A stretch of 64,000 nucleotides of DNA from a virus. Lineage: Duplodnaviria; Caudoviricetes. A model generated the notes under the pieces. That model was not told the DNA's origin, searched no databases, and saw only the letters and a list, made by a program, of their open reading frames with translations. The DNA lies in the IMG/VR virus record IMGVR_UViG_3300031463_000547, positions 2,031 through 66,030 of that record; one strand, written 5' to 3'. Shown here piece by piece: positions 7,910 through 47,538 of this stretch. A program made the translations under genes and the position numbers. Each line of letters starts with the position of its first letter. Position 1 is the stretch's first letter.

Positions 7910-7995
7910 ATTACAGCAGCATGGCGAAGTGCTGGACTGCTATGAGCGCAACGGCGTAATTGTATATCGGGTTTGCAAAGATTAGGAGCACGGCT

Positions 7996-8916
7996 ATGGC
8001 TAATCCTCAGACAGAGAGCGGCCATATCAGGATAGCAAACGAACTATATCGAGCTGCCCTGCGACTGCTACCACCCAACGAATACAAATGTTGGTCAGCG
8101 ATACTCGATTTGACATACGGGTGGCGGAAGAAAATGACAGTGATTAGATATAGTCAGATCGCTGCATCCACAGGACTGTCGATGATTGCCGTAAAGCGGT
8201 CAATGCACAGGCTCCAATCATGGAATGTCGTAGTCTGCATCAGACATGATGGACAACCATCTGAAATTGGTCCCAACAAGGACTTCGACTCCTGGCGCAT
8301 TACCACTGATACCGGTATCAGTGGTGATACCGGTATCAGTGGTGATACCGGTATCAGTGGTGACTTGACACCGGTATCACCAGTGATACCACACCGGTAT
8401 CATCCACGATACCGCACCAGTATCACCAGTGATACCACACACCTTATTTACAACCATGTACAACCATGTAATTACAACCATGACAACCATGACGTCGATA
8501 CCAATGCCGACGCACCCATTGTCTCACCTGTTGTCAAACGATACATGGCCGTATTTGGGATAACCAGAGGTGCATCCGACCGCAATGTCAGGCGGTGGAA
8601 CAAACTGGCAGCAGAACTGGAACAACATCCAAATTACGATGAGGCCACGGCGTGCGCCGTCATCAGTGAATGGAAACGCCATGAATGGGATGACTACAGG
8701 TCCCGGCCTCATAATCAACACCACCCGATACCCGATTTTGGCTACTTTGTGAACTCGTCAGCCGGTACCCCGATCATCCAAGCGGTGTTGGAGGGCGCGC
8801 CGATGCCGGGATCGCCTAAACGCAATGGTGGGGGAGAAAACAACATCCCAACTAATCCCTACGAGGGCTGGTTGACACACGAGGAATACGCGCGCGTGGA
8901 GCTGATGGGGGACTAG
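7996..8916 (+). CDS. phage replication initiator (lambda O-like N-terminal wHTH)
   Basis: MANPQTESGHIRIANEL...TYGWRKK...SQIA...GPNKDFDSW; internal iterons; immediately upstream of DnaB; RBS AGGAG. Confidence 0.85.
   Translation: MANPQTESGHIRIANELYRAALRLLPPNEYKCWSAILDLTYGWRKKMTVIRYSQIAASTGLSMIAVKRSMHRLQSWNVVVCIRHDGQPSEIGPNKDFDSWRITTDTGISGDTGISGDTGISGDLTPVSPVIPHRYHPRYRTSITSDTTHLIYNHVQPCNYNHDNHDVDTNADAPIVSPVVKRYMAVFGITRGASDRNVRRWNKLAAELEQHPNYDEATACAVISEWKRHEWDDYRSRPHNQHHPIPDFGYFVNSSAGTPIIQAVLEGAPMPGSPKRNGGGENNIPTNPYEGWLTHEEYARVELMGD
8302..8491. repeat. iterons, putative replication origin inside the initiator gene
   Basis: Perfect 24-bp palindrome ACCACTGATACCGGTATCAGTGGT (8302-8325), tandem 18-bp GATACCGGTATCAGTGGT x3, degenerate GTATCA/GATACC copies to ~8436, then ACAACCATG x4. 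Confidence 0.8.
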
Positions 8917-12868: not shown

Positions 12869-13575
12869 TGAGGAACTACTACAAAATCACGAACGAGCTC
12901 GAATGTCATCACGGTATGCGCTGCCAGACTGGGATGAACATTTATCCGTTCCCATTTAAATGCGAACCAGACAAGCGGGGCGGAATATATTTTGCTCGCG
13001 AGCACATCCTAGAGTTTGCTGCTCGCGGGAGATGGTTGCGCGTCGTAGCTGTTCCGCCTGGCGCACAGGTAGTGGAAGATCATCATCATCATCCGTCGCG
13101 CCAGTGGCGCGCAGACAAACTCATTCTGGGGCCTCGCAAGCGGCTCACGAAGGCCCTGCTTGCCAAACTCATCGCAGAGGGCGCGACGCTCAGAGAGCGT
13201 GCAGTACTCAACGCCATTCGTGTTTCCGATTTTCGTATGGTGCGTTGGTTAGTCGAGTTGGGCGCTCCGATTAGCGATCTGTCGCCCGACGCCGCGATTA
13301 TGGCTCAGGCGGTGACGCTAGGATGTGATTTCCGATTGGTGCGATGGCTGGTAAAGCGGGGTGCGCCTATCAGCGAGTGGTGCGTGGTTGATGCCATAAA
13401 GGCCGATGAACCTGGCTTGGCGCGGTGGTTGGTGAAACATGGCGGGCCAGCTAGTCCACGGGTATTGCTGGAAGCCATCAAAGCCCGCCAAGCGAAGTTG
13501 ACGCGGTGGTTAATGGAACGTGGCGTGCATCTGAACGATGACGTGTTGAGGCAGTTGATAGATGATGAAGAGTAA
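12865..13575 (+). CDS. ankyrin-like repeat protein with an N-terminal YKITN..ECHHG domain
   Basis: Repeats FRMVRWLVELGAPI, FRLVRWLVKRGAPI, LARWLVKHGGP, LTRWLMERGV. Confidence 0.7.
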   Translation: MMRNYYKITNELECHHGMRCQTGMNIYPFPFKCEPDKRGGIYFAREHILEFAARGRWLRVVAVPPGAQVVEDHHHHPSRQWRADKLILGPRKRLTKALLAKLIAEGATLRERAVLNAIRVSDFRMVRWLVELGAPISDLSPDAAIMAQAVTLGCDFRLVRWLVKRGAPISEWCVVDAIKADEPGLARWLVKHGGPASPRVLLEAIKARQAKLTRWLMERGVHLNDDVLRQLIDDEE

Positions 13576-13595
13576 CACCACAGTGACATTGATGC

Positions 13596-14369
13596 ATGCA
13601 GGAGATTGGGCAAGCGATGGATGTTTGGGTGTATACAGATGGGGCTTCGCATGGCAATCCGGGCGAGGCGGGCATAGGAGTGGTGATCCGACAATACAAG
13701 GGTCGTTTCAGTCTGCGCGAGATCAGTGAGTACATTGGCTGGGCTACTGCCGCAGAGGCTGAATATAAAGCGATCATACGAGGACTGCAGGAAGCGGCCG
13801 TTCTGGGAGCCAGTCGAGTCACAATATGCTGTGACAGCACTATAATCGTCAATCATATCAATGGTCGTATGCAGGCACATACGCCAACTGAGCGCTTACT
13901 ACTCAGCGAGGTGCTTGATCTGATGGCCGGATTTCAATCTGTCCGCGTTATGTGGATGGATCGAACGAAGAATAGTGAGGCCGATGCGCTTGCAACCGCC
14001 GCCATCAAACAGCACCATGACGATCGATATAATTCAAGTCACTACGCGAACCTCTATCTGGGATCATTAGTTCGCGGATTGCCTGAGGGGTCGAATATAG
14101 AGAGATGGGACGGCTGGGTCGTCCGGATGCCCCATAATGCTAAGACGGTTATCGGAACCGGCTCAACTCCAGAGGCAGCGATTAAAGATGCCCAACTACA
14201 GATAGCGAGATTGATGGATGAGAATCAGCGAAAGCGAGTACAAAACTCTTTTGGCCGGCAAAAGCGAGCGTCCCAAACGTTGCCGGACCAAGAAGCCATT
14301 AATGGAACCTGTCGGCGTCTTACTCGAACCGGGATACGTGCTCTTGGCCTTGACTCTACCGCCGAGTAA
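13596..14369 (+). CDS. RNase HI with C-terminal HicB-like extension
   Basis: YTDGASHGNPG, AEYKAII, CDS, NSEADALA catalytic motifs. Confidence 0.85.
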   Translation: MQEIGQAMDVWVYTDGASHGNPGEAGIGVVIRQYKGRFSLREISEYIGWATAAEAEYKAIIRGLQEAAVLGASRVTICCDSTIIVNHINGRMQAHTPTERLLLSEVLDLMAGFQSVRVMWMDRTKNSEADALATAAIKQHHDDRYNSSHYANLYLGSLVRGLPEGSNIERWDGWVVRMPHNAKTVIGTGSTPEAAIKDAQLQIARLMDENQRKRVQNSFGRQKRASQTLPDQEAINGTCRRLTRTGIRALGLDSTAE

Positions 14370-14676
14370 AAACCGGGAGCCGTCGCATCGGTGGGCGCGC
14401 TATCGGTTGAAACAGGAGTGGGAACGGCTTGCGTATCAGGCATGGCTGGCGGCGGGCCTGCCGCGGTTCGATGCGGTCGAAATCACACCGCGATTCTGCG
14501 TATGGCAGTTGCGCGATGCCGACAACAACAACTCGCTGGCGTTCAAGGGAATTATAGACGGGCTGAAGGGCCGCCTAGTGCCGGACGATTCGACGCGGTT
14601 CCTGACACTGGCTCCTGATGTATGCGAGGTGGACCGCCGCTTACAGCGGCTGGAATTGCATATCCTCGCAGTCTGA
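14218..14676 (+). CDS. rusA: RusA-like Holliday junction resolvase
   Basis: LPPSKN, RDADN, KGIIDGL...LVPDDS. Confidence 0.7.
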   Translation: MRISESEYKTLLAGKSERPKRCRTKKPLMEPVGVLLEPGYVLLALTLPPSKNREPSHRWARYRLKQEWERLAYQAWLAAGLPRFDAVEITPRFCVWQLRDADNNNSLAFKGIIDGLKGRLVPDDSTRFLTLAPDVCEVDRRLQRLELHILAV

Positions 14677-14715
14677 GCAGTCTGATTGGTGACGTATGAC
14701 TGCGATAAGTAGAAT
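14677..14715 (+). promoter_or_regulatory. putative late promoter 1 with dyad GCAGTC-N15-GACTGC and -10 TAGAAT
   Basis: Near-identical 39-bp element repeated at 38624-38662. Confidence 0.7.
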
Positions 14716-14739
14716 GAAATCAAACTGGGGGCATACCAC

Positions 14740-14979
14740 GTGATCGAAATGCAGGAGTTCAATGAATCCCAAGTGCCGGATGGATTCACGATTGCAGCAC
14801 TGCATCCAACTGAGGTGCGGTTGCTACGGCTGCTGAAGGACTTGGAGTACGGCAGGTTGGACGGAGAATTAGCACGGATCAATGTGCAGGCTGGCTACCC
14901 AGTGAGTGCAGAAGTCCGCTACTGCGTCTCAGATTCTCCTAGCATCACAGCAACGAAGCAAATCCGGTTGGACAAATGA
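14740..14979 (+). CDS. small YezD/DUF2292-like protein, candidate late antiterminator
   Basis: LHPTEVRLLRLLKDLEYGRL...INVQAGYPVSAEV...KQIRL resembles the YezD pattern (helix, YG, I-x-V-Q-x-G, K-I-R-L); first ORF after promoter 1. Confidence 0.55.
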   Translation: MIEMQEFNESQVPDGFTIAALHPTEVRLLRLLKDLEYGRLDGELARINVQAGYPVSAEVRYCVSDSPSITATKQIRLDK

Positions 14980-15419
14980 TACCTAAGGATTCGATGCGAT
15001 TCCGGGAAGCCCCGGAACTGCGGGCGATAGCTGAAAAGTTGAAGGTTTCGCCCGCTGTGATGTGGAGAATCGCTCACATCGATCTGGATCGTATCGGGTT
15101 TCTATACGAATATACGTGCGACGTGGTGCATGTTCCAGCATATTGTCGGAGGGTCGTGCAACCATACAAGCAGTTTTTGGAGGAACAGGGGCGGAGATGG
15201 GATTGGATCATCGAAGTGTATGGATGGCATGCTGAGGACAAAAGCGTTGAGTGGCTACAAATTCTGCTGTATCACCAACTTCGTCACATAGGATATGATG
15301 GCAAACTCGTCGAACACAATGTCGAGGATTTTGGGGATATACTCGCCGAGTTCGGAATAGATTGGGTGGCGGACACAGACCCGCTGCCGGACATAACGAA
15401 ACTGCCAGCAAAATACTGA
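14976..15419 (+). CDS. putative phage metallopeptidase-family protein
   Basis: WIIEVY...ILLYHQLRHIG...HNVEDF...FG pattern; HExxH appears as HQxxH. Confidence 0.7.
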   Translation: MIPKDSMRFREAPELRAIAEKLKVSPAVMWRIAHIDLDRIGFLYEYTCDVVHVPAYCRRVVQPYKQFLEEQGRRWDWIIEVYGWHAEDKSVEWLQILLYHQLRHIGYDGKLVEHNVEDFGDILAEFGIDWVADTDPLPDITKLPAKY

Positions 15420-15421
15420 TA

Positions 15422-15487
15422 GGCCGAGAGGACCAACCTTAAGCCGAGGTACTCCCAGAAATGGGGGCGCTTCGGCTTTTGTCGTTT
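15422..15487 (+). terminator. conserved antiterminator-hairpin/terminator cassette, copy 1
   Basis: GGCCGAGAGGACCAACCTTA AGCCGAGG...CTTCGGCT TTTGTCGTTT, upstream of terS. Confidence 0.8.
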
Positions 15488-15499
15488 ACAGTGCTTTCC

Positions 15500-16018
15500 A
15501 TGTTCAGACGCAAGGGGCCAGTCAAATACGAGCGACCCGGCAAGCTCACCGATGAACAGCGTGAGCTGGTATTGAACTGCCTTGCGTGTCGAATGGCAGG
15601 CCAACGCATTATCGAATACCTCCAAGCGGAGTTTGGGGTAACCGTCAAACATCCCGCGATATGCTACTACAAGCGCGTCTATGCTGCTGAGATTGCCGCT
15701 CGTCGAGAGCGGTATCTCGCGGAATCGAAGGTCATCAACCTGCCATTTGTAGCCCAAGCTGATCGATTGGCGGAATACAGCCGCCACGTCAGCATCGAAT
15801 TGAGGCGGGGGCGACTACGGGAGGCCCGTGAGGCGCTGCGGTCCATAGCTGAGGAGACGGGCGAACTGAGACAAACCAGAGATGTCAACATCAATGCCAG
15901 TCAACGAACAACTGCTGAGCTGCTTGAAATTGTGCGCGGCGCATTGGGGGGAACTGACGCCGATACAGCAGGAGGCGGCGGCGGAGCTGGCGAGGAGATA
16001 CCAGGCCCAGCGGGATAA
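15500..16018 (+). CDS. terS: terminase small subunit (DUF2280-like)
   Basis: KLTDEQRELVLNCLA HTH-like N-terminus; overlaps the terL start. Confidence 0.65.
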   Translation: MFRRKGPVKYERPGKLTDEQRELVLNCLACRMAGQRIIEYLQAEFGVTVKHPAICYYKRVYAAEIAARRERYLAESKVINLPFVAQADRLAEYSRHVSIELRRGRLREAREALRSIAEETGELRQTRDVNINASQRTTAELLEIVRGALGGTDADTAGGGGGAGEEIPGPAG

Positions 16019-17630
16019 GGCCAGTCTGAGTCTATCTGACTGGGTGTATCGATATTCGGCTCTGAAGGTCGGTGCGAATTGGCTGCCGTTCAGTTTTGAC
16101 GGCCATGAATATCTGCGGGAGCTATATTGTGACCCGCAGCCAATAGTGATCCTTGAAAAAGCGGCTCAGATGGGCGCATCGATCGTGGCGATCAACCGGG
16201 CTCTGCATTTTGTGGATACGACGGGCGGAACGGTGATCTACTTTTTTCCGACGGACACGGACGTGGCGGATTTCTCGAACACGCGCGTCAAGCCGATGAT
16301 CGAGCGGTGCGAATATCTGTCGGACCAGTGCAACGACATCAACAATGTGCATGTTCGGCAGATCGGCATGGGTCTGCTGTATTTCCGTGGGATGTTTGCC
16401 AAAGGGCGGACGAAGAGCATCCCTGCAGATTTCACCATCTTCGATGAGTTGGACGAGGCGAAGCCGGAGCACAAAGCGCAGGCACTGGAACGAATGAGTC
16501 ACAGTGCATGGGGGTGGCGAATGGAACTATCGACGCCTACCATTCCGGACTACGGCATAGACATCGAATTCGCACAATCCGATCAGCGCTACTGGCATGT
16601 CGCATGCGGCTGCCGCGAGGGTGTCGTGCTGGAGGATGTTTTCCCCGAATGTATCGGGGTTCGGCACGAGGGCACGGATCGTGAGGAGGTGTTCCTGCGG
16701 TGTCCGCGGTGTGGCAAGATTCGGCTGAACCCGTGCGAATATGCAACGGTCGGCGAGTATCGGGGTTGGATTCCGAAGCGGCCTGAAAATGCGAGGCATG
16801 CCCGCGGTTATCATCTCTCGCAACTGTTCTCGACAACACCAGCGTGCAGTCCGGCGGCGATCTGGTATAAGTTCCGGCACACTCGCGACATTCCGGAGTT
16901 TTATAACTCGGTGTTGGGCGTGCCGTATGCCGGCGATAGAATGCCGTTGACTCTGGATGTGCTCGCGAAGTGCCACGGCGATTGGGGATTAGCTCAGACT
17001 GGCACTCGATGCTACATCGGAATCGACCAGGGCGCAGACAACTATGTGATTGTCAAGCAGCGGGATCCGAACACGGGGGCCGGGAAGGTGATTAACGCTG
17101 TGGTTGTCGAGGGTCCGAACCCGTGGCCAGCAACGGTAGAGATATGCAAGCTCTACCCGGATGCCGCGATAGTCGTCGATGCGCTGCCTGAAAAAACCCA
17201 AGCGCGCGCTCTCTGTCAGCTATTTCCAGGACGGGCGTATATGTGCTACTACACCGACACACAAAAGGACGCGGTCGTAGTAGATGATGATCCGAATGAG
17301 CCAGACGCCGGAATGAAGGTTACCGTCCATCGGACAGAGACCCTAGACAGAGTCATAGAAATGCTGCTGTGGACGGCGCAGGGACGCCCCGACGGGATCA
17401 TCCTGCCCAACGCACAATTACCGATATGCAAGGAGATCAAAGACCATTTGGCAGCATTAGCGAAGATCCGGCGCCGCAGGGTAGTCAACATCGGCGGCGT
17501 ACAGCAGGAAACCGGGGAAGTGGAATGGGTCTATGTGCATATCAAACCCGATCACTTCGCCCATGCGCTGAACTATGCAACGATAGCGGAATCCGTGCCT
17601 GTCAACGTTGGATGGGCGGGATTTATGTAG
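15882..17630 (+). CDS. terL: terminase large subunit, GpA-type
   Basis: KAAQMGAS, FDELDEA, STPT, SDQRYW, CPRCG, GIDQG, DHFAHALNY. Confidence 0.9.
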   Translation: MSTSMPVNEQLLSCLKLCAAHWGELTPIQQEAAAELARRYQAQRDKASLSLSDWVYRYSALKVGANWLPFSFDGHEYLRELYCDPQPIVILEKAAQMGASIVAINRALHFVDTTGGTVIYFFPTDTDVADFSNTRVKPMIERCEYLSDQCNDINNVHVRQIGMGLLYFRGMFAKGRTKSIPADFTIFDELDEAKPEHKAQALERMSHSAWGWRMELSTPTIPDYGIDIEFAQSDQRYWHVACGCREGVVLEDVFPECIGVRHEGTDREEVFLRCPRCGKIRLNPCEYATVGEYRGWIPKRPENARHARGYHLSQLFSTTPACSPAAIWYKFRHTRDIPEFYNSVLGVPYAGDRMPLTLDVLAKCHGDWGLAQTGTRCYIGIDQGADNYVIVKQRDPNTGAGKVINAVVVEGPNPWPATVEICKLYPDAAIVVDALPEKTQARALCQLFPGRAYMCYYTDTQKDAVVVDDDPNEPDAGMKVTVHRTETLDRVIEMLLWTAQGRPDGIILPNAQLPICKEIKDHLAALAKIRRRRVVNIGGVQQETGEVEWVYVHIKPDHFAHALNYATIAESVPVNVGWAGFM

Positions 17631-24163: not shown

Positions 24164-27100
24164 ATGAAGGCGACCCCATTTGGATTGACTTTGGAAAGGC
24201 CGGAATCGAGCACACCCGTAATAGTTGGTGACTTCGGCTTCGTTTTCACGCCTCTGTTCAAATCCAAAGCGGAGAAGGAATGGTGGGAGGACGCCAAAGT
24301 TGGTGATGAGCGCTGGATCACAATTCATCCCTCTGAGGATTCTGACAATTATCGTCACGTAAAAGTGCGGCTCCGTCCGGGCGGCAAGTGGCGCATTGTT
24401 GCCGGTGGAACCAACCTCGAACATCAGGAGATCGTTCCGAAGCATCGGTTGACGGACGAGGAACGTGCCGAGTACGATCGCCGGAAGGCAGCACGCGAGA
24501 AAGCCCGTCAAGAGCGGTTGGCGGCCCAAGAGCGGTTGGCGGAAATTCGCAAACAGCATGAGCACGCAATCGCAGAGGCTGCAGGTATATCAACCGAGTT
24601 GCCAGAGGAAGCCAAGGCTGAGATAGAACGCAGAGCGGATAAGCTCAAACTGGAGGGAAGCCAGCGATCAGCATTCATCGAAAAACAGCAAGCGAAAGCC
24701 CAGCAGGCTCATGAGAAATGGGTTTCGCAGGCTGTGCGATCACTGGTAGCACAGTCAAGGTCGGTCGTCTTCGCGGAGAAACCAGAGGAGGAGCTACGGA
24801 CAATCCACCAAGCTCATGAGGAAGCTGAGGCTCAAAAGAGGCGGCTGGCCGAACGGCTCTTTGAGGCGAGGTTGGCCGCTGCTGAGAAGGGAGAACCGGC
24901 AGGACTGACCGAAGAAGCCAAACCGGAAAAAGGGTTAGATAGGGCTAAGAGTGAGCCTGAAGAGGAACCCGTCTACAGGGCACAGAGCATGCCGGTCATT
25001 GCTGCGGTCGATATGGCTCAGAAGTTGGCGGCATTGGCTAAGGAATCGGAACACAAACTACGCGAGGCGCGGCGAGACCTACCGAAACTGGCAGAGGACC
25101 GCATTTCCGGGACTGAGGCGTTAGAACAATTTACAATTTCAGCAGAGGCTGCAGACCCTGCTGCTGCTGAGCGAGAACTACTCAAGGAACGCGAAGATCG
25201 ACTTCGCTCACAACTCAATTCCACTCTCGTCAGCATTGCTGATGCAACATATCGAGCCGACGATACAGGCTACGACCGGTTCGGTAAGAAGCAATTTGAC
25301 GTTGCGCGCGCACAGGTCACCGGTGCGTTGGATGCGATTACTGGCATATCGAAGCACTTCTTGGGTAGCAGCTTTATGGACCGTCCCATAGTCGAGGCGC
25401 TAGGAATCGACGGTGCTGCGGCATTGGCGGCGGGTGAGATAATTCGGCGGCGGGGTAAGGACGAAGCGGCACGGATACTGGCAGAGATCGAGGCCTACCA
25501 GAGCGAGGCGTCACATGAGATAGCCGAAACGGCGCTCAGCCGGCACAACGAGCTAATGGAGGCCAAACGGACTCTGCAGGACATGGCCAAAAAGCCCCTA
25601 GTGGATGACGATGGCAATCTGATTGCTGAAAACCTTTCGGAGACGGCAGATTGTGTAGCGCTCTATGGAGAACTTACCGCGGATGCGCTCAGGCATGTAG
25701 GGACCGCGTTGGGCAGCCTGCAGGCGTCGGCGTCATTGATGCGGCTACTCTCAGACGCAATCGAAGGCGGCAAGAAACTCGATAGTCTTCACATCGCGTT
25801 GCGCGATCCGGACGACGCCATGCGCATTGATCGCGCATTGCGACTGCATGGGCGCTTCAGGCTCGAAGAGGTTGAGGGTGGAACCTCAGCTATGGTCATA
25901 TCTCCGAGCGCCCTGAGCCGATACCTCAAAGAGGCCAAGGCCGAACGTGAGGTGGACGAACAGGTGCGTTCTCTGCAGGAGGGCAACCAACAGGTTGACG
26001 TCCACAAGACCCCCACGGGCTGGCGATCTGAATATGTTGACGAGGACGGCGAAAAACATAAGTTCGTATGGAAGGAAGGCCAAGCGCGCGCGCTGCAGTT
26101 TGCTATGCTCAACAGCACCCCAAACGGCGGAGGGGCGGTGATCGATCTCGAGGTCGGCGGAGGCAAGACCGCTTTCGCATTCGGCTATTTCGGGACTCTC
26201 AAAGAACGTGGTTGGATCGGAGAGGGTCGGCGCGCATTGTATGTAGCACCCCGCGAGTCGCTGGCAAGCCAAGCCATTGACGACTGCCACAAGTTTACGA
26301 CCTATACTGTAGATCGGATCGGCGGCGGCAGCAGGTCGCATGAAGACGAGATCAGGAGTCGATATGCAGGTAAGGGTTTTATCTCGGTCGTGACGGCGCA
26401 GACGTTGGCGGCTGACGTAAAGGCACTGTACAATATGGGCATTGACCCTTCAAAGTTCTTCTCGGAATTGGGTTACGATGCCATTGATCTTGATGAGGCA
26501 CACACACTGGTGAGCGGACTGTCGGGGGCGGGGGCGACCGGCCGGAGTGTGCGAAAGCTGCGATTGAAATACAACGTGGCTATGACAGGCACGCTTGCGA
26601 CGGACGCCGTATCACAACCATTCGACATGGTGAGGTGGGCTGTAGGCAACAAGGTGGACTCCCGCGCGAAGATATTGCGCAAGTATGGCGAGGTCGGGCA
26701 GGGAACGGAAGCTTGGCAAGACGCCGTGAATGCCGATGTACGGGCTCAGATTGACCGCTATACGTTCCATGGATCCGGCAACATCGAAGCGAAACTCCAT
26801 TCTGTTGAGCATAAGGTCAATCTCAGCCATCAGCAACGGGCTGCATTGCGCGATGCCGATGCGGCAGATAAGAAGCGCCGGCAACAAGCAATGGCGTTGG
26901 CACGACGCAAGGGCCGGACATCGCTGGACTCCGTGACGAAATTGAAGTTGGCCGACGAGCGGAACCGCGAGGTATATGAGATTCTGCACAACCGGGATTG
27001 GAGAACGAATCCGCGGCTGCAGGAGATCAGCAGACTGATTGCTGGCAACCCAGATAAGAAGTTCATCATTATCGGCGACACTGCACAATCCCTATCCGGC

Positions 27101-27493
27101 ATCCATGCTGTAGCGCAGATGTTGGCTGACCAAGGATTGGGTGATAACAGTGTGCTGTTTGCAAGCAGAACTCCAGATGGCAGGCCTATCAGCCAGAAGC
27201 AGATGACTCGGTTTCAGGCTCGGTTTCAGATGGACCCAAATTGCCGGTTTGCAGTATTGGCCGAACCGCAGGCTGTTGGTAGAAATTTGCAAGCCGCCGA
27301 TGTTGTGATTTATCTCGATGTGCCTCCCAACGCAGCGTCTCGAAAGCAGCGGCGTGGGCGGGCTTGGAGAACTGGGCGGAGGGGCGACGTTACCGAAATA
27401 CAGCTCTGGACAGACCAGAGTTCGTTTGACGTAGCGCGCAAACTCAACGTTGCTCGGACCGCCGGAATGCTGGAGGCCGTCAGCGGCAAGTAG
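24164..27493 (+). CDS. large SF2 (SNF2-like) helicase protein 1
   Basis: LEVGGGKT, DEAH, MTGT, GRNLQAAD, QRRGRAWRTG; N-terminal RWITIHP domain. Confidence 0.85.
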   Translation: MKATPFGLTLERPESSTPVIVGDFGFVFTPLFKSKAEKEWWEDAKVGDERWITIHPSEDSDNYRHVKVRLRPGGKWRIVAGGTNLEHQEIVPKHRLTDEERAEYDRRKAAREKARQERLAAQERLAEIRKQHEHAIAEAAGISTELPEEAKAEIERRADKLKLEGSQRSAFIEKQQAKAQQAHEKWVSQAVRSLVAQSRSVVFAEKPEEELRTIHQAHEEAEAQKRRLAERLFEARLAAAEKGEPAGLTEEAKPEKGLDRAKSEPEEEPVYRAQSMPVIAAVDMAQKLAALAKESEHKLREARRDLPKLAEDRISGTEALEQFTISAEAADPAAAERELLKEREDRLRSQLNSTLVSIADATYRADDTGYDRFGKKQFDVARAQVTGALDAITGISKHFLGSSFMDRPIVEALGIDGAAALAAGEIIRRRGKDEAARILAEIEAYQSEASHEIAETALSRHNELMEAKRTLQDMAKKPLVDDDGNLIAENLSETADCVALYGELTADALRHVGTALGSLQASASLMRLLSDAIEGGKKLDSLHIALRDPDDAMRIDRALRLHGRFRLEEVEGGTSAMVISPSALSRYLKEAKAEREVDEQVRSLQEGNQQVDVHKTPTGWRSEYVDEDGEKHKFVWKEGQARALQFAMLNSTPNGGGAVIDLEVGGGKTAFAFGYFGTLKERGWIGEGRRALYVAPRESLASQAIDDCHKFTTYTVDRIGGGSRSHEDEIRSRYAGKGFISVVTAQTLAADVKALYNMGIDPSKFFSELGYDAIDLDEAHTLVSGLSGAGATGRSVRKLRLKYNVAMTGTLATDAVSQPFDMVRWAVGNKVDSRAKILRKYGEVGQGTEAWQDAVNADVRAQIDRYTFHGSGNIEAKLHSVEHKVNLSHQQRAALRDADAADKKRRQQAMALARRKGRTSLDSVTKLKLADERNREVYEILHNRDWRTNPRLQEISRLIAGNPDKKFIIIGDTAQSLSGIHAVAQMLADQGLGDNSVLFASRTPDGRPISQKQMTRFQARFQMDPNCRFAVLAEPQAVGRNLQAADVVIYLDVPPNAASRKQRRGRAWRTGRRGDVTEIQLWTDQSSFDVARKLNVARTAGMLEAVSGK

Positions 27494-28372: not shown

Positions 28373-30524
28373 GTTTCGATGGGAGTATGCAAAGCGGATC
28401 GTAGAGGATGAGTATGGGCCTTTCGATGACGGCGAGCAAACTCGTAAGTGGAAACTGGTGATGGCAGTATTCAAGAAGCTCGGCGGCACAGTTGATAAGA
28501 GCTTGGAACCGCTTGTGCTCCGCCTCATTAAATCATACGTCAGGGGTCACTATCGAACGCTGAAAGATGGTTCGCGGGTGTGGGTTCGACCCTATACCAA
28601 CCGTAAGACGCGCAAGGCAGACGAACCTGATTATCATCATCCCATCGGCAAACGACTGCGCCAGATCGCGGCCAAGGCGGCTCGGCAAATGCGCCCCCTC
28701 CAAGTTCCAGCAATGGAAATCAAGAAGGACTGGACGGGCCAACCACTGGAGCAGTCGGTAGGCGATCCGAGGCGTCTGTGGAATCTGCAGACACAGAAGG
28801 TTGCCGGCACTGATAACGTTGTGTTTGTCGGAATACGGGAGGCATTTCAGAACTCTCTGGACGCGATGTTTGAGGCGATGCGTAGAGGTGAGATCAAGCG
28901 CGGCGAATTTCGCGTTGATTATGATGTGAACGCAGGCACGTTGTCGATCAGCGACAATGGCATCGGCATGGATGAGGACACCTTTCGGACGAAGTTCATG
29001 GTTCTCGGCGAAACCGGCAAGGCCGGCCAAACGGAGGCCGTAGGCGGTTTCGGAATGGCCAAGGCGTATATATTAGGTATGGTTGATCCGTCGCTACCTG
29101 GTGCGCGGTGGACAGTACGCACACGTGATATTGAGGCGACGTCGGAGATGGCTGATCCGAAGACGCCACCCGCCGAACGTGACATCAAACGGGGTCTGCC
29201 CAACCAACAGGGCGTAGTGTTGAAATTTGAGGGTATTGAAAAGCGGGCCTTCGGATGGAATCTGGAGGAAAAGTTGTCGCTATTGCTGGGATTGACCGAC
29301 ACTGGCGGCAAGGTAGATATGTATCTGAACGGCAAGCAGGTTCAGCCACCGTTTACCGTTTCAGAGGATTGCGAGAAACCATTGGATTCTCCAATGGTGC
29401 CTGAAGGTACCAACGTGCGATGCTATTTGCCGGAAGGGGACCGGCCGCGAGCTATCACACGGCTAAAAAGCAAATATGGCTATACGATGCTCCAAACAAT
29501 CGAATGGAGTGGAAATTTGCCCTGCTTCGTCGTTATGGACATTGATACCAAGTGGAGGCCGGGCGATCCTGAGTATCCCTATGAGGATAGTCGCCTCCAT
29601 CTCAAATACGATAGTCCATTGGCCAAGTTGATGGAAGCAGTGACGACTCAACTCAAGATGGACCCATATTCTGCAACTAGCAAGAGTGAGTACCAAACCC
29701 AAGTGTTTGGCGCCACTGGTGGTGCGATCATCGATGAGCAGGATCGGCAAGCAAAGCGGGCGATTGCTACCGATCCAACTATGATGAATGCTACGAAAGA
29801 GGTTGCAGAAATTCTGCGGAATGTAGGCGCTGCAGCGGCTCCACATTTGAGTGAGCGCGATGAATCCGATCCCACGGCGTCCAATATCCGCGCAGCGTCG
29901 ATGGCCTCTCGTATCATTGGGCTAGGTAGATCGGATGATAGCATTCAATATGCCGGCACCAGTCCAATAGGAAGAAGTTTTGTGGTCAGAATAGCAAACG
30001 GATACGAGGCCGGAGAGAAGTTCCGCATAGATAAGACAGCGCTTCGGCAGTTAATTGCATGGGATAGCATCTGCCGGATAGTCGGCGCGCAACTGATTAA
30101 GGTGGGAGCGCTTATGGATGTGGACTTCAAGCCGGGCTTTGTGCTGAAGGGCGATATTAAGGCGATGAACACTAAGCTGGAATACGATCAAGAGATCGCA
30201 GAACGAATCGGTGTCCCACGAGAGCGAGTGCTGTTATTCAATCCGCTATTCGTGAAAGGTGATTCTCCCGAAGCTCGGGCGATGTGGATGCGAGATGAAG
30301 CCTGCCATGAGTTTGCCCATTTCTTCTGCGGAATGCATACTGAGGAGTTCACGGCAGCCGAATCAAACGTACGGGAAGCAACACTGCCCGTAATCGGTGA
30401 TATACTGCGCATTGGGAAGCTGCTACTACGAACTAAGGCAAAGCAAACAAAACCAGACGACGGCAGCGGTCGGCTGGAACTGTCCCTGAAGTCGATACTG
30501 GAGGGCAATTATGCGATTCGATGA
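28344..30524 (+). CDS. GHKL (Hsp90/MORC-like) ATPase with C-terminal HExxH peptidase motif and ChaB-like N-terminus
   Basis: IREAFQNSLDA, ISDNGIGM, GGFGMA; CHEFAH...H; RBS GGAGGT before ATG 28344. Confidence 0.8.
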   Translation: MPSWLQKKDEFRWEYAKRIVEDEYGPFDDGEQTRKWKLVMAVFKKLGGTVDKSLEPLVLRLIKSYVRGHYRTLKDGSRVWVRPYTNRKTRKADEPDYHHPIGKRLRQIAAKAARQMRPLQVPAMEIKKDWTGQPLEQSVGDPRRLWNLQTQKVAGTDNVVFVGIREAFQNSLDAMFEAMRRGEIKRGEFRVDYDVNAGTLSISDNGIGMDEDTFRTKFMVLGETGKAGQTEAVGGFGMAKAYILGMVDPSLPGARWTVRTRDIEATSEMADPKTPPAERDIKRGLPNQQGVVLKFEGIEKRAFGWNLEEKLSLLLGLTDTGGKVDMYLNGKQVQPPFTVSEDCEKPLDSPMVPEGTNVRCYLPEGDRPRAITRLKSKYGYTMLQTIEWSGNLPCFVVMDIDTKWRPGDPEYPYEDSRLHLKYDSPLAKLMEAVTTQLKMDPYSATSKSEYQTQVFGATGGAIIDEQDRQAKRAIATDPTMMNATKEVAEILRNVGAAAAPHLSERDESDPTASNIRAASMASRIIGLGRSDDSIQYAGTSPIGRSFVVRIANGYEAGEKFRIDKTALRQLIAWDSICRIVGAQLIKVGALMDVDFKPGFVLKGDIKAMNTKLEYDQEIAERIGVPRERVLLFNPLFVKGDSPEARAMWMRDEACHEFAHFFCGMHTEEFTAAESNVREATLPVIGDILRIGKLLLRTKAKQTKPDDGSGRLELSLKSILEGNYAIR

Positions 30525-30753
30525 TATGGATGGGTTCCATAAGAGCGTGAACGAATATGCTGCGTTTCTGCTCGACTACGATGCAGTAGTCAAATATCTC
30601 CATAAGCGGGCTGAGTACATAGCGGCGAAATGCGGAGATAGCAAGATCATTGAACCGCTCGCCGATGAAATTACGGAACTCGCCATAGGCGCATTTGGTA
30701 TGGGATGCACCGCACGCGAGATTCAGTCGATTCAAGAAAAAAGTGGGAGTTGA
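30511..30753 (+). CDS. hypothetical protein
   Basis: RBS GGAGG; operon position. Confidence 0.6.
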   Translation: MRFDDMDGFHKSVNEYAAFLLDYDAVVKYLHKRAEYIAAKCGDSKIIEPLADEITELAIGAFGMGCTAREIQSIQEKSGS

Positions 30754-38329: not shown

Positions 38330-38632
38330 ATGCCAAAGGCGAGAGCGAATACAAATGCCATACGGAAACTGCTAGTAGACTGCGAAAAGCGACGCTACGA
38401 TCTGGCTAAACGCACAGATGCTATTCGCCATGCAGCATTGGCCATCGAGAAAGCAGCGATAGCCAAGCAACGGCGCCTGCGCAAGCAACTTCAGTCTGCC
38501 ACCGGAGATCGCCGCAGAATCCTAGAGGCGAACTACTTGGCGGAGGTGGACGCCCAACAAAAGGCGGCAAAAGCGTATTCGTTGGCATGTCACACGTTGG
38601 CGAAACTCGGAAAGCTCGAAATTGCAGTCTGA
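38330..38632 (+). CDS. hypothetical basic helical protein
   Basis: RBS AGGAGGT. Confidence 0.7.
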   Translation: MPKARANTNAIRKLLVDCEKRRYDLAKRTDAIRHAALAIEKAAIAKQRRLRKQLQSATGDRRRILEANYLAEVDAQQKAAKAYSLACHTLAKLGKLEIAV

Positions 38633-38662
38633 TTTATGCGATGTGACTGCGATAAGTAGAGT
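38624..38662 (+). promoter_or_regulatory. putative late promoter 2 with dyad GCAGTC-N15-GACTGC and -10 TAGAGT
   Basis: Matches 14677-14715 (GCAGTCTGATT...TGACTGCGATAAGTAGA); 11 nt upstream of the protease ATG. Confidence 0.7.
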
Positions 38663-38673
38663 AGGGTGAGCGT

Positions 38674-40719
38674 ATGGAGAGCTTCAACGTCATCGTGCCT
38701 CTGGTCAAGGCGACTAGGGGGAAAAATGGCGAAACCATCATTCACGGGGTGGCATCAGACGAGAGCGTTGACCTGCAGGGAGAGGTGACGCTGGCGGCTG
38801 GCCTGAAGGGCAGTTTGCCATATCTGCAGAAATTCGGCAAGTTCAATGACGACCACCGCAACGTGGATGTTGGGGAGGTAACATTCGCAGCAGTTGTGCC
38901 CCAGCGCGAATTAGTTGCAAAGGGCATTCTGGATGAAAAACTGGTGCCCGCGAACGAGTTGGACAGCGAAGTGCTGTATGTGAGCGGGCCGTTGTATAAG
39001 CATGTCGATCGCGCAAAGTACTATCGCGATGTGCTGCGGTCTGGTGGGCGGCTCGGATTGAGCATCCAAGGCATGGTGCTGGAGAGAGACATTTCAAAAT
39101 CTGGCGCCGGCCCAACAGTCAACAAGAGGTGCTTCGTCAACAAAATTGCCATAACCGATCAGCCCATCAACCCGAACACATGGGTTGCATTGCAGAAATC
39201 ATTTGGCGGCTCATCAGAGGGGCCGAAACCATTCATGCGCGCACTATCCAAGGCGCTGGAAACCGGGACGGGAATCGTAAGCGAGAACGATACCGGAGGA
39301 GCGGCGTTGCGGAGGCAGAGTCTGGAGCGAACGCGCCGACGACGCGCAAGGAGGAAAGGCGTTACAACCATGAACACAGACCTGAAGTGTTTCGTAACCG
39401 ATGTCGAAAAGAGTCTGGGCGGCCTGAGTGCCGATGAGGTGTCGGCACTAATTTTGCGTGAATTAGAATCATCCGGTGTTGCTGAAACCGACACTGCTCA
39501 CTTCGATAGGCCGTGGGTCCAAGCGCTATATGACGATCATGCAATAATCGCCCGGAACAACAAGTATTACCGGTACGACTACGCGATCAGAGACAAGAAG
39601 CTTGCTAAGTTGCGGTTTGTGGGTGAGGTCGCACAGGAGCGAAATTGGGTGCCCGTACCGCCGACAGAAGGCGAAGTCCAGAAATCACTGCTGGATGTTG
39701 GATCGTTGGATAGTCCGCGCCGCGTGCTGGAGGCGTGGAGGAACTTGCAGAAGGCAGTTGGTACCGGACATTATTCAGCCAGCGAGATCACACAGGCAGC
39801 AAAACGCATTCGCGAAGCTGCTAAAGGAGAGAGCAGATTGTCGAAAGCCATCGAGATAGACGCAGAATCATTTGGTGCAACCAACCTGACCAAGGGTTTC
39901 GTGGAGAACGAGTTAGCACTGTTGGATTGGTTGGAGACCGCATCTGATACGGAGTTTGATGATGCGCTTTCCAAGTCCTTGACAAAGGGCCGAAAGGCTG
40001 CAGCGAAGAACGATAAGAAGTCACCAGAAGCTGATGAGAACACGTCCCCAATCGAGGAAGATGAGGACGAGGACGAAGAGCTTTTCGGCCAAGACGAAGA
40101 GGAAGACGAAGACGAGGAAGAAGAGGAAGACGAAGAGGAAGACGAAGACGAGGAAGAAGAGGAAGACGAAGAGGAAGAGGAAGAAGAAGAGGAAGAACCG
40201 CGACGAACTCGGAGATCGAAGAAATCCTTTGCAGACAAGATGATCGAGGAAGGTGGGCCGGAAATTATCGAGGCCATCGATATGTCACCAATTTTGGCAG
40301 GATTCGTTGACACCATAGGTAAATCCCTGGCGAGCGTGGAGTACGCAATAGAGGAGCTTGGCGAGCGTGTGAGTGCTTTGGAGACCAGCCGAAACGGGGA
40401 TGGTCTCACGAAATCGCTGGAGCCGATAATTGCGTCGATAAATGAGATTCGGGAGAATCTGGACGAAATTGGCAAACAGCCGCGGCCACGAGGCTCATAC
40501 ACGGTGCTCAACAAGGGATTTGAGGCGGGATCAGGCTCGTCTGATATGACACGGGAACATGCGATGAGCGTGCTAGTTAGAGCCGCTCAGGAGGGGTTGA
40601 CCAGCGGGGCGATGGTAACACAGCTCGAACTGACGCCTGGGACGGGCGTACCCGCCGAGATCGTGCCGATTGTCAAGAGTTTGGAGAGCAAACTGAAGAG
40701 CGCAGGTATCAGCGCATAG
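38674..40719 (+). CDS. prohead protease fused to scaffold
   Basis: IHGVASDESVDLQGE, FNDDH, LGLSIQG, IAITDQPINPNTW protease motifs; acidic coiled-coil C-terminal half; directly upstream of the capsid gene. Confidence 0.85.
   Translation: MESFNVIVPLVKATRGKNGETIIHGVASDESVDLQGEVTLAAGLKGSLPYLQKFGKFNDDHRNVDVGEVTFAAVVPQRELVAKGILDEKLVPANELDSEVLYVSGPLYKHVDRAKYYRDVLRSGGRLGLSIQGMVLERDISKSGAGPTVNKRCFVNKIAITDQPINPNTWVALQKSFGGSSEGPKPFMRALSKALETGTGIVSENDTGGAALRRQSLERTRRRRARRKGVTTMNTDLKCFVTDVEKSLGGLSADEVSALILRELESSGVAETDTAHFDRPWVQALYDDHAIIARNNKYYRYDYAIRDKKLAKLRFVGEVAQERNWVPVPPTEGEVQKSLLDVGSLDSPRRVLEAWRNLQKAVGTGHYSASEITQAAKRIREAAKGESRLSKAIEIDAESFGATNLTKGFVENELALLDWLETASDTEFDDALSKSLTKGRKAAAKNDKKSPEADENTSPIEEDEDEDEELFGQDEEEDEDEEEEEDEEEDEDEEEEEDEEEEEEEEEEPRRTRRSKKSFADKMIEEGGPEIIEAIDMSPILAGFVDTIGKSLASVEYAIEELGERVSALETSRNGDGLTKSLEPIIASINEIRENLDEIGKQPRPRGSYTVLNKGFEAGSGSSDMTREHAMSVLVRAAQEGLTSGAMVTQLELTPGTGVPAEIVPIVKSLESKLKSAGISA
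40054..40197 (+). repeat. poly-Asp/Glu coding tract with a 36-bp tandem unit
   Basis: GACGAAGAGGAAGACGAAGACGAGGAAGAAGAGGAA at 40093-40128 and 40129-40164, plus partial copies. Confidence 0.85.
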
Positions 40720-43183: not shown

Positions 43184-43672
43184 ATGGAACTCATCATTCG
43201 TGTTTGCATTCCATCGGCGGCAGGCGCAGCTATTTACACGCCCGCAGGCAAAATTGAATTTGATGCAAACGGTGTGGCCGAACTGCCTGCAGGTTGGACG
43301 CAGTATCTGCGCGGCTATCCAGACCTAACAGTCTATGATGGACAATCGCCGTCATCTCCGGCTCCAGAGACAGAAATAGAATCAGAATCGGGGCCGGAGT
43401 TTTCTGAGCCGCCGAACGAAAACACCGCTGTCCATACAGATTTCGAGAAGCTCCGAGTGTTTGTAGATGGCGATCAGGTCTGCGCGATGCGTGGGGATGA
43501 TGGTCCGGCGGTGTTTGTAGATCGGGCAGAGGGCGTAACTGGGGACGTAACGGAGGCCGAACGCGAGGCAGTACTGGCAAAATGGCATGCCACACATGCC
43601 GAGGCTGATGTTGGTTCGCACAAACCACGGACACGAAAGCAGCGAGCGAAAGCGAAGCGAGCTTCTGCATAA
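43184..43672 (+). CDS. hypothetical protein
   Basis: RBS AAGGAGG; ORF ends before a terminator. Confidence 0.7.
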   Translation: MELIIRVCIPSAAGAAIYTPAGKIEFDANGVAELPAGWTQYLRGYPDLTVYDGQSPSSPAPETEIESESGPEFSEPPNENTAVHTDFEKLRVFVDGDQVCAMRGDDGPAVFVDRAEGVTGDVTEAEREAVLAKWHATHAEADVGSHKPRTRKQRAKAKRASA

Positions 43673-47477: not shown

Positions 47478-47538
47478 GGCTGAAAGGACATACCTTGAGC
47501 CGAGCAGACCATTAGGTCAGCTCGGCTCTTTTTGCTTT
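47478..47538 (+). terminator. conserved antiterminator-hairpin/terminator cassette, copy 4
   Basis: GGCTGAAAGGACATACCTTG AGCCGAGCAGACC-ATTA-GGTCAGCTCGGCT CTTTTTGCTTT, upstream of the tail tube gene. Confidence 0.8.

Follow-up and report, generated by a model that had tools for sequence, protein, structure and literature searches.

In antitermination of the BglG/LicT/SacY type, the RAT hairpin is the target of the CAT domain of the protein, and in phage lambda the N protein, which is strongly basic and arginine-rich, works through a single nut site per operon that makes RNA polymerase resistant to terminators. Many phages keep small late regulators near their terminase genes. In a different functional direction, the phage family PF18894, annotated as "putative phage metallopeptidase," is relevant to the locus described here, and we know of no role for a small upstream partner of its members. 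A further family, DUF2292/YezD/OscA (PF10055), consists of small proteins; OscA is reported to lie in a unit with sbp and is described as a small protein of unknown function (PMC2996968). We compared all four with ORF79, a 79-aa phage protein that the first-pass annotation of this DNA had put forward as a YezD/DUF2292-like candidate for an antiterminator acting in trans on four RNA hairpins.

The window, by which we mean the whole stretch of DNA analyzed, covers 64,000 bases of a 66,030-base IMG/VR record that is classed as a provirus and is 76% complete. In a longest-ORF map, the ORFs between ~1.0 and 62.2 kb all lie on the + strand except for seven short ones, of which three overlap the + strand ORF79, ORF147, and terS-like genes and one overlaps the ORF at 43184-43672. 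The left part encodes an M78 peptidase, a PD-(D/E)XK nuclease, a UvrD-like helicase, replication protein O, a DnaB-like helicase, a radical-SAM-like protein (below the Pfam cut-off), an ankyrin protein, and RNase H. From 14.7 kb on, the order is ORF79, ORF147, the terS-like ORF, terL, and portal; these are followed by two very large helicase-like proteins and a sigma-70 region 2 protein, and then by the head protease/scaffold, the major head protein, and the tail genes. The features needed for the argument are as follows.

14677-14713, + strand: promoter-like 37-nt repeat, copy 1 (direct repeat D11), directly upstream of ORF79
14740-14979, + strand: ORF79, GTG start at 14740, 79 aa
14976-15419, + strand: ORF147, 147 aa, similar to PF18894
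15461-16018, + strand: terS-like gene
15882-17630, + strand: terL
24164-27493, + strand: first helicase-like giant, 1,109 aa
27450-28091, + strand: sigma-70 region 2 protein, 213 aa
33475-38319, + strand: second helicase-like giant, ~1,600 aa (1,614 aa as the listed ORF)
38624-38660, + strand: second copy of the promoter-like repeat, immediately ahead of the head protease/scaffold gene (38674-40719)

Several other features of the map are recorded here in their own right. Both giant proteins resemble phrog_62 "DNA helicase" and are sited amid head and tail genes. The gene for replication protein O (7960-8916) contains several 18-23-nt direct repeats built on TGATACCGGTATCA at 8307-8440 (+ strand), and these TGATACCGGTATCA-based repeats look like origin iterons. 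In the protease/scaffold gene, a run of GAAGAC/GAGGAA-type repeats at 40055-40205 (+ strand) encodes an acidic Glu/Asp tract near the C-terminus. Short contigs that match the window within 13500-17500 with no or almost no differences occur in DNA runs labeled soil, activated sludge, hot spring, and microbial mat; these contigs from four runs are uninformative about function. In one soil contig, the gene upstream of ORF79 is present in a diverged form, with 28 differences over 257 nt, and after 14633 that contig is unlike the window sequence.

We first consider whether ORF79 is a gene at all. An ATG at 14749 is an alternative start that would give 76 aa, and this is the form held in the protein database. 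A search of 1.84 billion representative proteins returned three matches at E ≤ 0.001, namely ORF79 itself, P0003 (65 aa, E 4.1e-10, ~56-58% identity), and P0002. The last of these, a 4,171-aa protein matching in eight stretches (E 2.3e-33), was dropped as a homologue, as it is the translation of a tandem repeat and hence an artefact. A profile search added P0004 (77 aa, E 1.4e-18), which is 44% identical to ORF79 in alignment A4. In that alignment the three members share an invariant core, with a variable, in-frame insertion before the last strand. Because two homologues keep the conserved core, ORF79 is, judged by its conservation, a genuine gene of a very rare three-member family found only in metagenomes. 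The opposite view, that ORF79 is spurious and that the minus-strand ORF at 14436-14882 is the genuine one, draws on the greater length of that ORF (148 aa), but it is very improbable: the two homologues have an invariant core and an in-frame indel, the minus-strand ORF, one of the three short exceptions at the ORF79, ORF147, and terS-like genes, would overlap two + strand genes, and the ORFs chosen in this part of the longest-ORF map are nearly all on the + strand.

The family is scarce wherever we looked for it. Searching P0003 with tblastn against 50,697 phage records gave chance matches only (E ≥ 5), P0003 was not found in the viral contigs, and alignment A4 gave 141 pattern matches and no relatives in the metagenome contigs. 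No Pfam family matched ORF79 at E ≤ 1, none matched P0001 or P0003 at E ≤ 10, NCBIfam held no match at E ≤ 10, and PHROGs returned only phrog_1923 at E 0.16. Within Pfam, PHROGs, and NCBIfam, ORF79 showed no helix-turn-helix, zinc-finger, or other DNA-binding family, and the known RNA-binding antiterminator families of Pfam and NCBIfam were not found in it either. AF2 models (pLDDT 49.1 and 51.1) contain a helix, H20-31, and three strands, and a Foldseek search of the pLDDT-51 model against BFVD and PDB gave nothing at E ≤ 0.001. As counted from the translations, ORF79 has 12 acidic and 9 basic residues for a net charge of about −3, and its homologues have about −1 and 0. Such a neutral-to-acidic family would be unusual for an RNA binder.

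The neighbor of ORF79 belongs to a described family. ORF147 matches PF18894 at E 4.3e-9 and 37 bits, above the curated Pfam cut-off of 23.7, and its start overlaps the stop of ORF79 by 4 nt (ATGA). It has exactly two homologues, P0006 (80%) and P0007 (71%), both of them PF18894 proteins, and none among the 50,697 phage records (E 1e-3) or in the viral contigs. P0006 and P0007 are encoded on contigs of 2313 and 2937 bp, equal in bp to the contigs of P0003 and P0004. From these equal sizes, on which the contig sharing rests, we infer that the ORF79-ORF147 pair is kept in all three known genomes. Since the pair is conserved and its genes overlap by 4 nt, a two-protein unit is the simplest reading. 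ORF147 also departs from its family in one respect: where both homologues read HELRH, the protein in the window reads HQLRH and therefore lacks the Glu of the HExxH motif. Compared with PF18894 as described, then, the coupled downstream neighbor of ORF79 is a member above the curated cut-off, in a pair seemingly conserved in two relatives, but one without the HExxH Glu. The pairing is new here, and it appears to be both conserved and translationally coupled.

Our main reading is that ORF79 functions with ORF147 as its small partner. ORF79 would be the promoter-proximal cistron of a conserved, translationally coupled unit with ORF147, and this unit would sit between the promoter-like repeat and the first terminator cassette, immediately upstream of the terminase genes. 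ORF79 would be made at the start of late transcription and might serve ORF147 as an adaptor, an inhibitor, or a specificity subunit. We put the probability of this physical and functional partnership at roughly 35%. It is favored by the ATGA overlap, which can be read directly from the sequence, by the score of ORF147 above the PF18894 cut-off, by the apparent retention of the pair, by the acidic-to-neutral charge of ORF79, and by the negative tests for antiterminator families. Against it, adjacency and coupling are no proof of binding, and the position of ORF79 is predicted equally well by an antiterminator model. ORF79 also diverges faster than ORF147 (58% and 44% versus 80% and 71% identity), a pattern that fits a partner or an unrelated small gene, and the language-model look-ups described below point toward DUF2292-like viral clusters. 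A complex prediction for ORF147 (alignment A8) with ORF79 (alignment A4) scored 0.00, which counts neither for nor against the partnership.

The position of the unit relative to transcription signals bears on the partnership and on its rivals alike. Within the 37-nt repeat are an inverted repeat of 6 bp and a hexamer resembling TAGAAT. The 17-nt core of the 37-nt repeat occurs exactly twice in the window, where 0.09 occurrences would be expected by chance. We treat it as a putative promoter; it was not among the sites listed by a sigma-70 scan. The first-pass annotation had placed ORF79 first after a putative late promoter and ahead of the first terminator cassette. ORF79 is indeed the first ORF after the two-copy, promoter-like repeat, and the second part of the claim holds as worded: ORF79 ends at 14979 and cassette 1 spans 15422-15483. 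Among the terminator-like sites listed, none on the + strand falls between copy 1 of the repeat and cassette 1. The gene for the sigma-70 region 2 protein (32.7 bits against a cut-off of 24, with a PHROG sigma-factor match) sits within the structural/late region, and its product could read the two-copy promoter-like repeat.

This arrangement allows a reading in which ORF79 has nothing to do with RNA hairpins and is instead a DNA-binding or packaging accessory of the late/terminase module. It might act as an activator at both copies of the promoter-like repeat, or it might assist the terS-like protein. Its gene does lie shortly upstream of the terS-like and terL genes, and the 6-bp inverted repeat within the promoter-like repeat could be an operator. 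We nevertheless consider an accessory of this kind distinctly unlikely. No DNA-binding family was detected, the protein is acidic to neutral, its gene lies downstream of the element that it would have to activate, and the examined flanks of TerL relatives (26-54% identity) contain no homologue of ORF79.

The RNA side of the locus consists of four cassettes in which a short hairpin is joined to an intrinsic terminator. These and one further terminator are listed here, with the scores of a cassette covariance model, R2.

15422-15483, + strand: cassette 1 (repeat D2/D5), just before the terS-like and terL genes, 45.8 bits
33486-33548, + strand: cassette 2, before the 1,614-aa helicase-like gene with the phrog_62 match, 46.1 bits
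40746-40810, + strand: cassette 3, between the protease/scaffold and major head protein genes, 44.0 bits
43700-43735, + strand: fifth strong intrinsic terminator, an 11-pair stem with 8 G-C pairs, followed by a T run
47478-47538, + strand: cassette 4, 42.5 bits

The four copies score 42.5-46.1 bits with R2 and the next match in the window 13.4; therefore, the window contains exactly four cassettes, as the first-pass annotation had counted them. Their shared 26-nt motif reads GGCYGARAGGAC-NN-ACC-NNN-AGCCGA. By itself it forms a weak hairpin (−6.9 to −10.5 kcal/mol), in which an internal loop separates three outer G-C pairs from four inner pairs and the terminal loop, of 5 nt, begins with AC. 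The whole cassettes fold at −30 to −32 kcal/mol. In cassette 1, the motif occupies 15422-15447 and the terminator about 15441-15483; the full structure has a predicted energy of −31.5 kcal/mol (z −3.6) and the small hairpin one of −6.9 kcal/mol. The terminator of cassette 2 was the top match of a consensus terminator scan, and the terminator stem of cassette 4 differs from those of cassettes 1-3 by compensatory changes. The 3′ arm of the GGC...GCC hairpin is, in every one of the four, the base of the terminator stem, with 3-5 nt in common. Because the weak hairpin shares the base of the strong terminator, termination would be the default, which a factor that stabilizes the hairpin could switch. 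As modeled, the cassette design is the architecture of a factor-dependent attenuator. For the small hairpin itself, covariation did not rise above control: a single pair has changed on both sides, a result that 297 of 500 shuffles also attained. The fifth terminator, which follows the ORF at 43184-43672 and is two genes past the major head gene, has no hairpin motif, and R2 is not above noise there.

On the RNA side, the cassettes resemble the targets of BglG, LicT, and SacY, in that a hairpin with an internal loop overlaps the 5′ base of the intrinsic terminator at each controlled terminator. The differences lie elsewhere. Neither ORF79 nor the window proteins scanned have a CAT_RBD or PRD domain, Pfam is negative for P0003, and ORF79, at 79 aa, is too short for PRDs. 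The cassette RNA is unlike any Rfam family (the window gave nothing at gathering thresholds), and its setting is a phage late operon. With lambda N, ORF79 has in common that it is a small protein encoded first after a (putative) promoter and before the first terminator, in a system with a short RNA hairpin. It differs in being acidic to neutral rather than an arginine-rich basic peptide. Unlike boxB, moreover, the phage motif is present at each of the four terminators and overlaps them, so that a local rather than a processive action is implied.

The first-pass annotation had also stated, as a premise, that DUF2292 genes tend to be followed by short hairpins, and this proved correct for the bacterial loci that we collected. 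Genuine DUF2292 genes were found in 9 of 201, 9 of 121, and 3 of 121 bacterial genomes, which yielded 16 distinct loci (L039-L047 and L058-L064). A conserved hairpin with the pattern YGGAC-NN-CCR lies within 100 nt past the stop on the coding strand in 15 of the 16, at distances of 13-94 nt. Elsewhere in the same loci, there are only six other matches in 98.8 kb on both strands. The aligned sites consist of GA, a 4-bp stem (CYGG/CCRG), a loop of ACNN, and then A-R-G, and the second stem pair varies between C-G, U-A, and U-G. At several loci, a second hairpin follows in tandem and covers the ribosome-binding site of the next gene. In a covariance-model search of 121 genomes from a single order, six matches scored at least 29 bits, every one of them in a DUF2292-positive genome; five of these are training sequences, and the sixth shares a contig with the DUF2292 gene and lies 5 kb downstream of it. 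Genomes that gave no DUF2292 match reached at most 26.9 bits. No family in Rfam 15 matches this hairpin, and a limited literature search, in which sources were available in part, met no description of it.

Whether ORF79 belongs to this protein family is a separate matter. Its claimed resemblance to YezD/DUF2292 was not borne out by HMM searches, which gave no match, or by profile scores, which could not be separated from those of shuffled and reversed controls. Membership in PF10055 is defined by a curated cut-off of 22 bits, and ORF79 falls below it. A six-frame PF10055 search of the 66-kb record gave nothing at E ≤ 10, in a search that detected the Bacillus subtilis control. Two of the checks that the first-pass annotation had proposed were a profile comparison and Foldseek: hhalign of A4 against A5, an alignment of nine genuine DUF2292 proteins from Pseudomonadota only, returned a probability of 2.8% (P 0.016; score 15.84 over 25 columns), and Foldseek against BFVD and PDB was empty at E ≤ 0.001. 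The score was reached by 6 of 150 column shuffles, and a reversed profile scored 14.77 against 15.84. The register of this alignment joins a leucine-rich helix, an aromatic-Gly turn, a 5-aa insertion mid-alignment, and then two strands. With HMMER, the A5 profile scored the three members of the ORF79 family at 2.1, 0.5, and 1.3 bits, and 8, 111, and 33 of 500 shuffles, respectively, were equal or better. The annotation had named an absence of DUF2292 similarity as one result that would speak against it, and these values come close to such an absence.

In language-model look-ups with ORF79 and P0003, the nearest named clusters carry PF10055 in 30% and 44% of their members; scores of 0.76-0.77 for these DUF2292-bearing, largely viral clusters have the status of a lead only. 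A search by sequence turned up no solved structure for DUF2292. Among viruses, neither tblastn of one DUF2292 member against the phage records nor A5 against the viral contigs gave a match. The families are close in size, with 52-60 aa in DUF2292 and 65-79 aa in the ORF79 family, and the ORF79 gene, too, has a small GA-flanked hairpin downstream of it. The phage hairpin, however, is 445 nt downstream of ORF79 and behind ORF147, whereas the bacterial one is within 100 nt, and the bacterial genes examined precede ORFs of ~330 aa. ORF79 has no conserved DUF2292-type hairpin within 100 nt past its stop, which is an empirical feature outside the Pfam definition. We regard ORF79 as a putative remote relative of DUF2292, a tentative placement with a chance a little below even.

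The two hairpins can be compared more directly. By eye, both have GA on the 5′ side, GG at the end of the stem, AC at the start of the loop, and CC in the 3′ arm, and in both the A-R-G of the 3′ flank leads into the next hairpin. We do not count this likeness as evidence. The phage hairpin differs in its stem, its loop is 5 nt long, and R1, the covariance model of the DUF2292-linked hairpin, gave 5.4 bits for cassette 1 and did not align cassette 4. Its noise in the window is higher than that, with 14 unrelated sites at 8.6-14.7 bits and the best of them, at 14.7, outside the cassettes. Since R1 was built from a narrow Pseudomonadota set, a distant relative of the hairpin could be missed.

With both sides in place, we can weigh the proposal that ORF79 is a divergent YezD/DUF2292-type protein that binds and stabilizes the hairpin at the four terminators and so acts as a local antiterminator. 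ORF79 would be made from the first, terminated late transcript, would accumulate, and would then open the late region. Binding to the hairpin would prevent termination because the 3′ arm of the hairpin is the bottom of the terminator stem. The order of promoter-like repeat, ORF79, ORF147, and cassette 1 fits this scheme, all four cassettes pair a weak hairpin with a strong overlapping terminator, and Pfam shows no known antiterminator family in 20 other window proteins. The register in which hhalign sets the ORF79 family on DUF2292 is a sensible one, the language-model clusters nearest to ORF79 and P0003 carry DUF2292, and the hairpin behind nearly all of the genuine bacterial genes has its by-eye likeness to the phage one.

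We nonetheless judge this proposal unlikely. The DUF2292 membership of ORF79 fails every significance test, R1 scores cassette 1 below the noise of the window, and the charge of the protein is acidic to neutral. The hairpin is separated from ORF79 by the intervening ORF147, a fifth strong terminator of the late region has no motif, covariation in the phage hairpin is no better than in the shuffled control, and RNA binding by DUF2292 proteins is itself unproven. The apparent conservation of ORF79 in a coupled pair with the metallopeptidase-like ORF147 lowers the odds further. The claim that ORF79 is the antiterminator is in effect a guess that rests on gene position.

Occurrences outside the window inform the question of what reads the cassettes. 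Scans with a strict pattern gave no stretch in the viral contigs, seven in the genome contigs, none with a terminator, and 15 in the metagenome contigs, of which one is a cassette; a looser pattern with a terminator arm gave ten stretches in the viral contigs, none of them cassette-like. The single occurrence of motif and terminator found beyond the window is thus on a 2,279-bp metagenome contig, L036. The two ORFs at the left of this contig share 70% and 48% of their amino acids with window 30192-30741, which marks it as a related phage. The L036 motif is 85-88% identical over 26 nt to those of cassettes 2 and 3, so the motif is better kept in L036 than the neighboring coding sequence, a point that also counts in favor of the antiterminator proposal for ORF79. 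On L036, the homologue of ORF 30511-30753 is directly followed by the cassette and then by a papain-like peptidase gene; in the window, two other genes separate ORF 30511-30753 from cassette 2. The junction is therefore a different one in L036, which makes the cassette a variable module boundary.

Relatives identified through TerL lack both elements as far as they were covered. At ten loci of TerL relatives (26-54% identity), there was no ORF79 homologue and no motif in the flanks examined. In five of their whole records, R2 gave four matches of 14.1-19.7 bits, none with a terminator behind it, and A4 gave nothing. One record is 93% complete, so both gene and motif seem to be absent from that phage, a single case (n = 1) that does not amount to a co-occurrence test.

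In a further reading, the cassettes are opened, processed, or bound by a host factor or another phage protein, or are factor-free partial terminators that set expression ratios, and ORF79 does something unrelated, such as host takeover or anti-defence. The placement of the L036 cassette at a different gene junction fits a portable module boundary, the fifth terminator shows that the late region tolerates terminators without the motif, and the sigma-70 region 2 protein shows that other control of transcription exists. In the other direction, the 5′ strand of the hairpin is strictly conserved across five copies, which points to a reader that recognizes its sequence, and no candidate reader was identified. 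We consider this reading a serious possibility that falls short of being probable.

A broader view would unite the phage and bacterial observations. The ORF79 family would be a phage branch of DUF2292, and the whole class would be hairpin-binding regulators, which in this phage act as local antiterminators of the late genes. In bacteria, the target would be the GGAC-type hairpin, next to which a second hairpin masks, in some loci, the ribosome-binding site of the gene that follows; in the phage, ORF79 would stabilize a hairpin of related type that shares the stem base of the four intrinsic terminators. We see this unified view as a long shot.

If ORF79 does open the cassettes, it would represent a new protein family of hairpin-dependent phage antiterminators, and it would provide the first mechanism for DUF2292/YezD/OscA, a widespread family tied to sulphur-starvation operons. 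Regardless of what ORF79 does, the cassettes, for which no known factor was found, are a clean example of a RAT-like attenuator in a phage late operon, and the hairpin that follows 15 of 16 DUF2292 genes stands outside the families of Rfam 15. The cassettes and the DUF2292-linked hairpin are the parts of this work most worth experiment.
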